Shown here one piece after another: positions 40,345 to 54,564 of a stretch of DNA of 64,000 nt (its first letter is position 1; every line of letters begins with the position of its first letter). The position numbers and the translations under genes are program-made. Under the pieces are notes generated by a model. The model was not told the DNA's origin. It made no database searches and was given only the letters and a program-made list of their open reading frames with translations. The stretch spans positions 144,702 through 208,701 of the forward strand of contig CAJUGX010000001.1 of the NCBI GenBank assembly GCA_910586385.1. The letters run 5' to 3'. This DNA is from an uncultured Christensenella sp. (GTDB taxonomy: Bacteria > Bacillota > Clostridia > Christensenellales > UBA1242).

Positions 40345-43300
40345 TTAAGCATTTTTTGCAAGAGTGAAGATGAGGTCGATGAGATAATAATCAGTGTGCT
40401 TAACTTTTGTCTCACCTTCGCCATCTGTGTTGTATTCAATGACAACAATGTAAGTTTTTTCAACATTTTCACTGTTAAGTGTTGCAAGAGAAATTTCTGT
40501 TGCAACATCCAATTTGCCTGAGTCATTCAGTTGCCAAAATGTTACTGCTGCATTTTCTGGAAGATTCAATTTCTTCAGGATGTCTCCTCCCGCCATAATC
40601 AAACGATAGCTTGTTGTTGTTTGTGTCTCAACAGTCAATTCTGCTGTATCTTTGTAAACATAGAATGCAACAGAATATCTGACATATCTTGGTTTGTCGC
40701 TTCCCTCTACGGTATAAGTGATAACATAATCCTTGCTGTCAATTCTGATGTCAGTCGTGTCTTTTCCTTCAGCATCCTTACCTGCAATTTGTAAATCACT
40801 GCTGAGCAATCCATTCCTGCCGATAAGTTCAATGCTTTGGATGGTCACCTTGTCGTCTTTCAAATCAGCCTCGACTTGTCTTGAAACAGCATCTGTCAGC
40901 TTTTCTCCCTCTTTGATAAACACTGTTGCACTTGTTGGAGAGTTTGAAGTTGTAAATTTGTAATGCACTGTAAGTTGAAAATATTTTCCATTTGAATTTC
41001 TAACAATGTAATGTACGTCAATTGTTGTATTTGCACCAATTGAGAAATTCTCTGTTGAGATTTCACTAATTGCATCACTTAATGCTGTATGATCTGAGCC
41101 GTGTGTAAAGTTTCCATTCACCTTATAGAACCTGTAACCGCTTGTTTCAAACAAGTTTGCAAGGTTGTAAGGTGCATTTTGGTTGAGTACAACATTTCTT
41201 TCTTCACTGTCATCACGGCTGACAACATAGAATGTGAAACTGTTGACCTTGGTCACACCATCGTCAAGAGAAACAAAGCTCTCGTTGTAGATTCCAGTCT
41301 GTACTGGAGCCGTGTAGTATGCTTTGTTTGAAGTTGAGTTTGTGATAAGTTTCACAGCTCCATCTTCATCAAAAGCATACCAAGGTCCAGAACCAAGTTC
41401 GTAAGTAGAACCATCAATGTCATAGTATTTGCCAAGATCTTCGTCCACTGGGCTTTCAACCTTGACATAATCTCCACCTTCTGTAAGTGTGAAGTAGTCT
41501 TTCCCTTCCACAACAGATTCGTCAGTTGTTTTCTTATATTCACTTGCATAGAGCATAATGACATTGTCCTTTCTGTTTAAGACGTTGTATGCCATAACAT
41601 CAAGTTTGACAACACCATAAGTCATCTCTGAAGTCTTGCTTGTCCTATATCCTACAAGGATAGTGAGTGTATGAGTGCCCTCTCCCTCAATCTTATAAGT
41701 GTTCAAATTGTTGTAGTGAATGATGTTTGAAACGCCACCAATCTCATCTTCCACAATGTGATAGACCAAATTGTGCTTTCCTTGTGCTTCCTCTTCAAAC
41801 AATTCTGCAAAGTTCAAAGTGTCTCCAGCCTCACAAGCGATTGTCTGTCTTGCGCTTCCAAATGGAGTATTGGTAATCGTTGAAAGACTGTTGCTTGTAT
41901 TATCGCTGTAAATAGACAAATCATAACCTCTTGGCACAGCAATCACACCAGAAGCATAACCCTTCGTTGTCAATCTTCCATATCGTCCTTCTGGAATTGA
42001 GATATTCTTTTTGTTGCTTTCATTTTGAGCATTCAAGAACATTCTGAATGATCCAAGTTTAAGCCTTGTAGAATCAACATCAAAGAATCCATTTTGTCCA
42101 GAAACTTTCATGTAGACATTGACTGAAATTGTGCTGTATTGAAGGTTGAAGTTTTTGTCTGTGATGATGTTTCCACTTTCATCAATAAATGCACTTCCGG
42201 CACCGCCCTCAACATCATTGTTGATTTCAAACACATACTTATAACTTGAGCCGCTTCTGAATGTAGCCAGGCTATTGGCGATTTCTGAATATCCCGCAAG
42301 TTTAAGTTTTTCTCCCCAAACTTCTCTTGGGATGATGTAATAGAAATCATTTACTCCAGATCTAGACGCCTTCAAATAGCCATCCACAGAAAACTGAATG
42401 TTTCCTTTTGCATCAACATCGGTGGCAGTCACTGGAAGCATCTTCTCGTATTGTGGGAACACCGAGAATGCCTTTGACATCTGATAATACATGTTTGTGT
42501 TTGTAAATCCAGACACACCCTCAATATTGTTGTTTTGACCTTGATACAAGAAGTAAAGAGTTTCTGTAGTGCTCTTTTTTCCGCTGAGCTCTTGAGCATC
42601 ATTGATATGAAGAGTGATATTGCTGTTGTACAGGCTTATCGTCTGCTCTGCATACAAGGTTGATGTTTCTTGCTCATAATACTGAGCAATTTTGTTTACA
42701 GTCAGATCTTTTGCTTCGACCGCAGTGTAAACACCTGTTTCAGATACAGTATAATAGGTCTTTGATCTGTCAAGCTCTCTGTCTGAAGTTCTCTTGTAAG
42801 AAAGCTCATATCGATCAGTCGAAACAAAATATTCTGTATCTTTAACTGGATTTGCCACAACTTCATACGAATAGGTTTCAGCTGAATATGTGTAATAGGT
42901 TTTTCCAGAATTTAAGTCTGCTTTTTCTCTATGATAGAATCTTTCGTCATTCTGCTCGAAATACTTTGTAATTTGATTTGCGTCTACATTTGTTGTGACA
43001 ACGTACAAGTCAGTGTCTTCAACATATTCATAATAAGTCTTGCCACTGGTGTATGGAGCTGTTGCTTGCTTGTAGAACTCGTCACCAGTGTATGCTGTGT
43101 ATGTACCCGTTGAAGAACGCTCATAGTAGGTCTTACCTTTTACAATCATAGAGTCTGTTGAGTATACATACTTAGGCACTGTACTGGTGTTTCCATCAAC
43201 AACAGCGACTTGAACCTTTGATCCATTGTAGAAGAATTCGATTTCATCACTGGTTGTTTGCGAAACAACGGTGATGTAGAATTTATCTCCTGTCTTATGG

Positions 43301-54564: not shown

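Follow-up and report, generated by a model that had tools for sequence, protein, structure and literature searches.

What kind of protein does a bacterium make from a gene of 14,220 bases, and what would such a protein be for? The question is raised by a 64,000-nucleotide stretch of a contig from an uncultured Christensenella sp. (hereafter the window), 22% of which is a single open reading frame (ORF) for a protein of 4,739 amino acids (aa), here called the giant. I found that the giant belongs to a family of giant envelope proteins, 3.4-5.7 thousand aa long, that is lineage-restricted and has no annotation. By analogy with other giant proteins, I read it as a membrane-anchored surface fibre or adhesin that would serve to tether the cell, either to partner cells or to gut surfaces, and I put the probability of this reading at roughly 0.55.

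An unannotated family of giant envelope proteins

Pfam returned nothing at threshold for the giant (its best match, PKD_3, reached 15 bits against a cut-off of 26.3 bits), NCBIfam and PHROGs returned nothing, and a phmmer search against PDB sequences gave no credible match. Pfam also found nothing above threshold in two homologues or in 19 family segments, and the family profile had no match in the PDB. When 1.84 billion representative proteins were searched exhaustively with a HMMER profile, built from aa 1-1100 of the giant and a partial homologue labelled Candidatus Caccovivens, 111 clusters were retrieved at E ≤ 1e-3, 66 of them at E ≤ 1e-30. Fifty-one of the 111 are full-length giants of 3,422-5,670 aa with intact ORFs, and these differ from one another by more than 50%. 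In nearly all of them the alignment begins within the first 5 residues, so the N-terminal anchor is common to the family. Word-indexed searches recovered one match with the N-terminal 1,200 aa, nothing with a family alignment (A6) and, with the C-terminal 1,200 aa, only an unrelated protein with repeats of the KTYY motif described below. Family identity is so low that the word index fails, and the exhaustive search alone succeeded.

That ORFs of this length stay intact in 51 diverged clusters, in genomes of ~35-40% GC, shows that the gene is genuine and under selection. Eight contigs from separate assemblies, including two NCBI metagenome-assembled genomes (MAGs; GCA_948943755.1 and GCA_948914295.1) and two Logan runs, encode exactly the window protein, so the ORF is not an assembly artefact. 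A non-functional or mis-assembled frame can thus be given almost no weight, since the protein is identical on all eight contigs and the 51 diverged homologues are full-length, with intact frames in the same neighbourhood.

A MAFFT alignment of 52 sequences (the window protein and the 51 full-length giants) is collinear over the entire length of the family. It contains a series of conserved single-copy blocks: WYYRIKV..P.F..G.V.YPY...EYLD (aa ~1660-1700), NYPxPDG (aa ~2375), IYAEDL (aa ~2555), the most conserved of all, GANNDGNxVMM..TY (aa ~3045-3065; GANNDGNHVMM in the window protein), NDTLEV (aa ~3692), TEYVGIS, and AFIDENGxITT (aa ~4125). Measured per 50 aa, conservation starts at 0.36-0.55 in the first 1,150 aa and drops to 0.14-0.33 in the last ~500 aa, a gradient from a membrane-proximal part that is conserved best to a distal C-terminus that is conserved least.

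The protein begins MKGFKGFKKRGPMALWKVLILVFVALIGIAGATALVLFLTG, with an N-terminus MKGFKGFKKRGPMALW followed by a hydrophobic span of ~27 residues. Residues 1-13 form a Lys/Arg-rich tail that is predicted to be cytoplasmic. In a Kyte-Doolittle scan of the whole protein, 19-residue windows exceed 1.6 only at window starts 10-25, and the highest value outside the N-terminus is 1.50, at aa 3267. The length of the span behind its positively charged n-region favours an uncleaved signal-anchor over a cleaved Sec signal peptide. From its sequence, I infer that the giant has a short Lys/Arg-rich N-terminus inside the cell, one transmembrane (TM) helix as signal-anchor, and ~4,700 aa outside the membrane. 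LPXTG (searched as LP.TG) has no match anywhere in the protein, nor has the RTX nonapeptide GGxGxD; a scan for the GG.G.D pattern, a C-terminal hallmark of type I secretion system (T1SS)/RTX proteins, gave none, and the C-terminus, ...DYYLIDLIFTLAKNA, has no hydrophobic tail. A lipoprotein is ruled out, as the N-terminal signal region has no Cys and hence no lipobox. The composition is S 9.0, T 8.8, V 8.3, N 7.3, D 7.3 and Y 6.4%, with 13 Cys, and the protein is strongly acidic (665 D+E against 433 K+R, a net charge of ~-230). The first-pass annotation, made from the letters of the window, was right in each detail that could be checked: a single ORF with a good Shine-Dalgarno sequence, a Lys-rich N-terminus with one TM segment, no LPXTG or other C-terminal anchor, a Thr/Ser/Asn/Tyr/Val/Asp-rich composition with about a dozen Cys, no domain family recognisable by sequence, and a divergent Lys-rich gene upstream.

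The TM segment, a juxtamembrane motif (G-x-F-D/N-E-K-x-V/I-x-P-x-D) and the first beta domain make up an N-terminal anchor module, and the first 100 aa of it (TM and juxtamembrane region) are among the best-conserved stretches of the family. This module is also the only part that the family shares with an otherwise unrelated second giant: the family hidden Markov model (HMM) matches that protein only over its aa 23-226 (E 3.4e-19), which marks the anchor as a separable unit. The ORF of this second giant (L007:9971-20141) is longer than 3,390 aa and continues past the end of its locus. It comes from another MAG labelled 'uncultured Christensenella', has other neighbouring genes and gave no match in Pfam.

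Fold, repeats and insertions

With 18 homologue segments in the alignment, AlphaFold modelled aa 2853-4052 at a mean pLDDT of 74.7 and a pTM of 0.58, with 842 residues at pLDDT ≥70; the model consists almost entirely of beta strands. The model shows aa 2853-3790 as a chain of Ig-like beta-sandwiches, in units of ~90-110 aa whose boundaries, estimated from the strand list, are approximate. By extrapolation, the whole ectodomain may comprise ~40-45 such domains. The best Foldseek match in the PDB is to the Ig-like domains of PrgB (8beg_B, E 1.3e-6). The other matches include the ectodomains of cadherins and protocadherins, Ig-array proteins from the central pair of cilia, the CfaB pilin and the S-layer protein SbsB, all at identities of 7-10% and TM-scores of 0.1-0.25. 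Among the viral models of BFVD, the matches are to phage 'Ig' multi-domain proteins.

The gene carries little repetition at the level of sequence. TRF found only one 21-nt array of 2.3 copies, and the longest direct repeats are ≤34 nt. A BLAST of the whole protein against itself gave the self-match only; 200-aa fragments compared with each other, and window HMMs from a 3-sequence alignment, brought out nothing but a short KTYY motif of ~45 aa. In a comparison of the 52-sequence profile with itself (hhalign -alt), the C-terminus was the only region with significant off-diagonal signal (3723-4735 against 3638-4636, Prob 85%, E 5.8e-6; 4457-4736 against 4241-4538, Prob 48%, E 1.8e-4). In aa 1-3600 the pair 1474-1816 and 2034-2366 reached only E 0.04, and nothing else was significant. 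The C-terminal signal corresponds to ~5 cryptic tandem modules of ~95 aa, in the least conserved part of the giant, and, judged by eye, extra copies appear to be present at the C-termini of seven homologues (P0007, P0013, P0015, P0019-P0021 and P0023). The absence of long tandem repeats in the DNA and of long-range periodicity, both claimed in the first-pass annotation, is therefore upheld. Its further claim of no recognisable domain repeats stands at the sequence level and, for cryptic repeats, across aa 1-3600. It does not stand for the region modelled as a string of beta-sandwiches, for the last 500 aa with their ~95-aa modules, or for the KTYY motif, which occurs 9-10 times.

Does this make the giant an ordinary repetitive adhesin of a known Big or cadherin type, with repeats that have diverged past the reach of Pfam? 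The same annotation had named ordinary Ig-like or cadherin-like repeats of a known family as the result that would speak against it, and this was found for the fold class only. The Foldseek matches to Ig-like and cadherin arrays and the cryptic C-terminal modules do point that way. However, neither Big_1 to Big_13 nor any cadherin-like family gave a gathering-threshold match in the giant, the two homologues or the 19 segments, the identity to the structural matches is 7-10%, the family profile found nothing in the PDB, and the profile self-comparison shows no significant domain-domain similarity over aa 1-3600. Furthermore, the orthologues correspond domain for domain instead of varying by expansion and contraction of repeats, and the anchor is an N-terminal TM segment, not an LPXTG or T1SS signal. 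I consider this alternative improbable.

The KTYY module (Y-x-K/R-T-x-D-x6-K-T-Y-Y-x4-G-x-Y-x2-V-x2-P-x5-L-x2-Y-Y/F-E) is found at aa 1553, 1994, 2131/2156, 3566, 3811, 3842, 3888, 3935 and 4355. These positions fall in low-occupancy stretches of the alignment, which marks the modules as lineage-specific insertions, and by its sequence the module behaves as an insertable unit. The strict pattern is absent from the L005 orthologue, and other members of the family carry modules at partly common and partly different sites, a qualitative statement, since a looser regular expression also matched conserved native strands (~aa 431, 446, 3222 and 4071) and its counts were not used. In the structural model the KTYY array appears as beta-hairpins and short helices at low pLDDT. 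The module, for which there is no Pfam model, also forms arrays of at least ten copies in P0002, an unrelated protein of 1,181 aa that is secreted.

A variable C-terminus could in principle carry a toxic, lytic or nutrient-capturing activity, in which case the giant would be a contact-dependent effector or a scavenging platform. The predicted partner dependence of the host lineage (PMC12306168) would suit such a role, as would the giant proteins of predatory Omnitrophota that have been linked to cell-wall degradation (bioRxiv 10.1101/2023.11.21.568195). However, Pfam and NCBIfam found no toxin, hydrolase or peptidase family anywhere in the giant, and the C-terminal region resembles the ~95-aa beta modules and not a discrete effector domain. 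The 86 columns of the alignment that are conserved at ≥95% are mainly Y, G, F, P and W, with one Ser and neither His nor Cys, and thus offer no obvious catalytic set. The gene directly downstream, moreover, is cls, which encodes a cardiolipin synthase, and not an immunity-like gene. I hold this explanation to be distinctly improbable.

Locus, neighbours and rate of divergence

The giant gene has a fixed place. Its locus reads abcF, a gene of 219-248 aa, the divergently oriented giant and cls, and this order was found in the window and in the loci L001-L004, L008, L009, L012-L020 and L022, that is, also in distant members of the family (L008, L009) and in those metagenome loci that are long enough (L012-L020, L022). 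The downstream DNA is readable in 14 loci, the window included. In 13 of them the giant is followed directly by cls, after a gap of 0-39 nt or with the stop codon of one overlapping the start codon of the next; L010/L011, without cls, is the exception. A scan between the two genes in the window found no terminator-like site, and the giant is probably co-transcribed with cls, judging from this arrangement. Beyond abcF the window continues with the GlyRS gene and then with a PBP2x/MraW cell-division cluster.

How fast the giant evolves can be seen against these neighbours. Between the window and L005, L008, L009 and L010 the giant is 26-32% identical and the divergent 248-aa protein 28-43%, whereas the figures are 56-61% for cardiolipin synthase, 60-62% for GlyRS and 71-73% for a VirD4-like coupling ATPase (T4CP; each of these three from 2 loci) and 89-93% for the ABC-F ATPase. 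The sequence of the giant diverges two to three times faster than its neighbours while its architecture stays, a pattern typical of exposed proteins.

The close linkage to cls favours the main rival, in which the giant would be an envelope scaffold and not an adhesin: a wall-spanning spacer, an S-layer-like coat, or a polar or septal organiser whose base acts with cardiolipin-rich membrane. The high conservation of the first 100 aa, the collinear and non-repetitive architecture, a pTM that suggests packed domains, and SbsB among the fold matches (at low probability) all agree with it. Nevertheless, no SLH, CWB2 or other wall-binding domain was found in the Pfam and NCBIfam scans of the giant, and two of its traits, divergence two to three times faster than that of the housekeeping neighbours and an apparently variable number of C-terminal modules, fit an exposed surface better. 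The adjacency of cls may itself only reflect the stable gene order of a reduced genome. I regard the scaffold as unlikely.

Giant, beta-rich, acidic proteins are also known from spore surfaces. UBA1242, the family to which the taxon labels on relatives point (see below), unexpectedly keeps sporulation genes (PMC12306168), so the giant might be a spore- or sporulation-associated surface protein such as an exosporium-like fibre. The setting of the gene, among the housekeeping genes for GlyRS, ABC-F, cls and the PBP/MraW cluster, argues against this, as does the lack of any collagen-like or spore-coat family signal in Pfam and NCBIfam, and I judge it very improbable.

The 248-aa protein, Lys-rich and predicted to be cytoplasmic, has relatives of 219-248 aa at L005:2680-3426, L006:9055-9747, L008:5070-5816, L009:5055-5714 and L010:5108-5803. 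They have in common a conserved N-terminal NYLNL...G..PLP..F, a FDECDAY core and a Lys-rich C-terminal tail; Pfam, PHROGs and the PDB yielded no match for the protein, and NCBIfam none that was consistent.

The T4CP gene lies on the strand opposite to the giant, 2-3.5 kb past cls, in L008 and in eight metagenome loci (L012-L019); in L010 it follows the giant directly (L010:20765-22795), and overall it is found downstream of the giant in 10 other loci. Its product is 71-77% identical across loci whose giants share 26-32%, and 38% identical to the VirD4-like protein encoded by the mobile element described next. This T4CP appears to be a core chromosomal gene and not mobile cargo.

Window positions 1-24418 are occupied by an integrative conjugative element (ICE) that ends beside a tRNA-Arg(TCG) gene (24344-24418). 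Between cls and the T4CP gene lies a low-GC island (~28600-38800; 26-29% GC against 33-41% in most of the window) of ~ten ORFs, of which all nine that were scanned lack a Pfam match. In L008 only three small genes separate cls from the T4CP gene, and the island is therefore probably an integrated element specific to the window genome. Two origins for the giant gene were ruled out. Its GC content of 38-41% is inside the range of the remaining window, which excludes a horizontal-transfer island, and it sits in a conserved housekeeping context to which the mobile elements are separate insertions, which excludes ICE cargo. At the far end of the window, on the (-) strand, a cell-division and wall cluster (59806-63996) encodes the MraW methyltransferase, a 270-aa ORF product that Pfam does not match, a PASTA-bearing transpeptidase of the PBP2x type and a zinc metallopeptidase. 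Its gene content suggests that the organism still makes peptidoglycan, and I take the PASTA-domain PBP as a sign of a Gram-positive envelope. The features are collected in Table 1.

Table 1. Positions in the window of the giant gene, its parts, its neighbours and the genes of the mobile elements
Feature	Positions	Strand	Basis or remark
Giant gene, ATG start, 4,739 aa and stop codon	40345..54564	-	ORF call; identical protein on 8 contigs
Sigma-70-like promoter candidate TTGCAA-17-TATAAT, in the 240-bp divergent intergenic region	54664..54692	-	consensus match only
Shine-Dalgarno GAGGA, 7 nt before the ATG at 54564	54572..54576	-	read from sequence
N-terminal anchor module, aa 1 to ~226	53887..54564	-	family HMM
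Single TM segment, signal-anchor, ~aa 14-40	54445..54525	-	hydropathy
KTYY insertion, aa ~1540-1585	49810..49947	-	alignment occupancy 0.42
KTYY insertion, aa ~1980-2030	48475..48627	-	alignment occupancy 0.33-0.56
KTYY insertion, aa ~2117-2165	48070..48216	-	alignment occupancy 0.42
Lineage-specific insertion of ~160 aa, aa ~2690-2852	46009..46497	-	occupancy 0.10-0.14 in the 52-sequence alignment
Modelled array of ~9-10 Ig-like beta-sandwich units, aa 2853-3790	43195..46008	-	AlphaFold2, pLDDT mostly 75-94
KTYY insertion, aa ~3553-3600	43765..43908	-	alignment occupancy 0.11
Array of four KTYY modules, aa ~3797-3970	42655..43176	-	alignment occupancy 0.06-0.22
C-terminal cryptic tandem modules of ~95 aa, ~5 copies, aa ~4240-4739	40348..41847	-	hhalign self-comparison
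KTYY insertion, aa ~4341-4390	41395..41544	-	alignment occupancy 0.33
Cardiolipin synthase (cls), PLD-type, 27 nt downstream of the giant	38869..40317	-	Pfam
Divergent Lys-rich protein, 248 aa	54805..55551	+	conserved neighbour, fast-evolving
ABC-F ATPase, 8 nt after the 248-aa gene	55560..57140	+	Pfam; 87-93% identical across compared loci
Second VirD4-like coupling ATPase (T4CP)	24673-26676	+	73% identical to the L008 copy (L008:26317-28302)
ICE: MobL relaxase	2077-3267		
ICE: VirD4-like coupling protein	3264-5453		
ICE: 1,481-aa protein	5450-9895		weak Big_3_3 signal
ICE: VirB4/TraG-like ATPase	12351-14972		
ICE: BspA-type leucine-rich repeat protein	16842-17978		
ICE: primase	18997-19956		
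ICE: C5 DNA methylase	20385-21491		
ICE: integrase	22768-24045		
Low-GC island: second tyrosine integrase	37183-38640		

The surface fibre, known systems and the host lineage

If the giant is a surface fibre, it would run as a long chain from the membrane across the Gram-positive wall with its N-terminal TM segment as base, and would tether the cell to partner cells or to gut surfaces. The distal ~95-aa modules, whose copy number is apparently variable, would together with the KTYY insertions form a variable interaction surface; a distal part that evolves fast and in which modules and insertions vary is the pattern expected of such a surface. Several observations weigh against this view. Three traits are unusual for the stalks of adhesins: strict collinearity, a lack of repeat expansion in the first ~4,200 aa, and a TM and juxtamembrane region that is very strongly conserved. 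A collinear chain on a conserved anchor fits fixed partners within the envelope equally well. The pTM of 0.58 over 1,200 residues suggests some fixed packing between domains and not freely moving beads. The confident model covers only about a quarter of the ectodomain, and a 2-sequence alignment of aa 1-1200 gave a model too poor for use (pLDDT 34.7). No ligand-binding, lectin or enzymatic domain was identified in the giant, and the term adhesin itself is borrowed from its likeness to other giant Ig-array proteins.

That likeness is a partial one. PrgB, the aggregation substance of Enterococcus faecalis (PDB 8beg), is likewise a chain of Ig-like beta-sandwiches on a Gram-positive surface, and is the best Foldseek match, at 8% identity and a TM-score of 0.09-0.14. 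However, PrgB is far smaller, is encoded on a plasmid and has a C-terminal LPXTG anchor and a defined polymer-adhesin domain, whereas the giant runs to 4,739 aa and is anchored by its N-terminal TM segment, and I could identify no adhesin domain in it. SiiE, the RTX adhesins of the LapA/MpIBP type, Ebh and Bap are comparable as acidic, mostly beta attachment fibres of several thousand residues built as Ig arrays. These giant adhesins consist of tens of similar tandem repeats that Pfam detects (Big, FIVAR and others) and that vary in number, and their attachment is by T1SS retention, by LPXTG or by a TM segment at the C-terminus. The giant, unlike them, has no Pfam match, no RTX or LPXTG motif and no sequence repeats over ~4,200 aa, and its orthologues correspond domain for domain. 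Cadherin and protocadherin ectodomains, which account for many of the Foldseek matches (E 1e-5 to 1e-3), are also strings of beta-sandwiches on a single-pass membrane protein, but they are eukaryotic, have the opposite topology with a C-terminal TM segment, carry Ca-binding linker motifs and share only 7-10% identity with the giant. Thus, the giant resembles the giant Ig-array adhesins yet fails their hallmarks (LPXTG, RTX, Pfam Big or cadherin), and it defines a new sequence family that is set apart by its N-terminal TM anchor, its inserted KTYY modules and its fixed locus in the core genome.

Giants of other kinds are known from bacteria with comparable ways of life. Apilactobacillus kunkeei, a Firmicute with a small genome of 1.5 Mb, encodes five extracellular proteins of 3,000-8,000 aa (Giant1-5) for which roles in surface interaction have been proposed; these have a cleaved Sec signal peptide and long arrays of imperfect repeats, largely alpha-helical in Giant1-3, carry DUF5776/SH3b-like wall-binding domains at the C-terminus and, in Giant1-4, have a beta-solenoid at the N-terminus (PMC12863079). 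The giant gene would similarly take up a large share of a small genome, but the repeat arrays, beta-solenoid and wall-binding domains of Giant1-5 were not detected in it: Pfam found no DUF5776, and there are no internal repeats over aa 1-4200. The 'Archaeovorins' of Omnitrophota, at more than 30,000 aa, have numerous TM regions and SecA DEAD-like, HEAT, TPR and glycosyltransferase domains (bioRxiv 10.1101/2023.11.21.568195). They too come from giant genes, in bacteria that are small-celled and either partner-dependent or predatory, and a role in cell-cell interaction has been proposed for them; the giant differs in having one TM segment, no Pfam domain and no SecA-like domain.

Which organisms carry the family? 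The only taxon labels among the relatives are 'Candidatus Caccovivens sp.' and 'uncultured Christensenella sp.', and Ca. Caccovivens corresponds to the GTDB genus UBA11517 in the family UBA1242, order Christensenellales (PMC8035907). The uncultured UBA1242 bacteria are widespread in animal guts (PMC13155120). Their genomes of 0.67-1.6 Mb are without amino-acid, nucleotide and lipid biosynthesis and standard transporters, and the bacteria have been proposed to depend on partner cells (PMC12306168). In this setting a bolder version of the fibre can be put forward, which I offer as doubtful: the giant could be a dedicated partner-attachment organelle of UBA1242, a single-copy tether of ~45 domains whose base is placed in cardiolipin-rich membrane by cls and whose fast-evolving tip, composed of the ~95-aa modules and the inserted KTYY hairpins, sets partner specificity. 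Such an organelle might cooperate with the conserved chromosomal VirD4-like coupling ATPase. An attachment apparatus has been postulated for Patescibacteria, and the giant would then be its counterpart among the Firmicutes.

For the family itself, the consequences can be stated more broadly. It runs against the usual view of giant adhesins as expandable repeat arrays, in that its members are fixed, collinear and diverged chains. Because it is invisible to Pfam, NCBIfam and PDB sequence searches, many gut MAGs would be better annotated once it is defined. Should the window organism be a member of UBA1242, a single 14-kb gene makes up ~1-2% of its genome, and the keeping of such a gene in reduced genomes argues that it matters. 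Kept at a fixed place in every recovered locus despite its rapid divergence, the giant is a candidate for the protein through which these bacteria may make contact with a partner or host.

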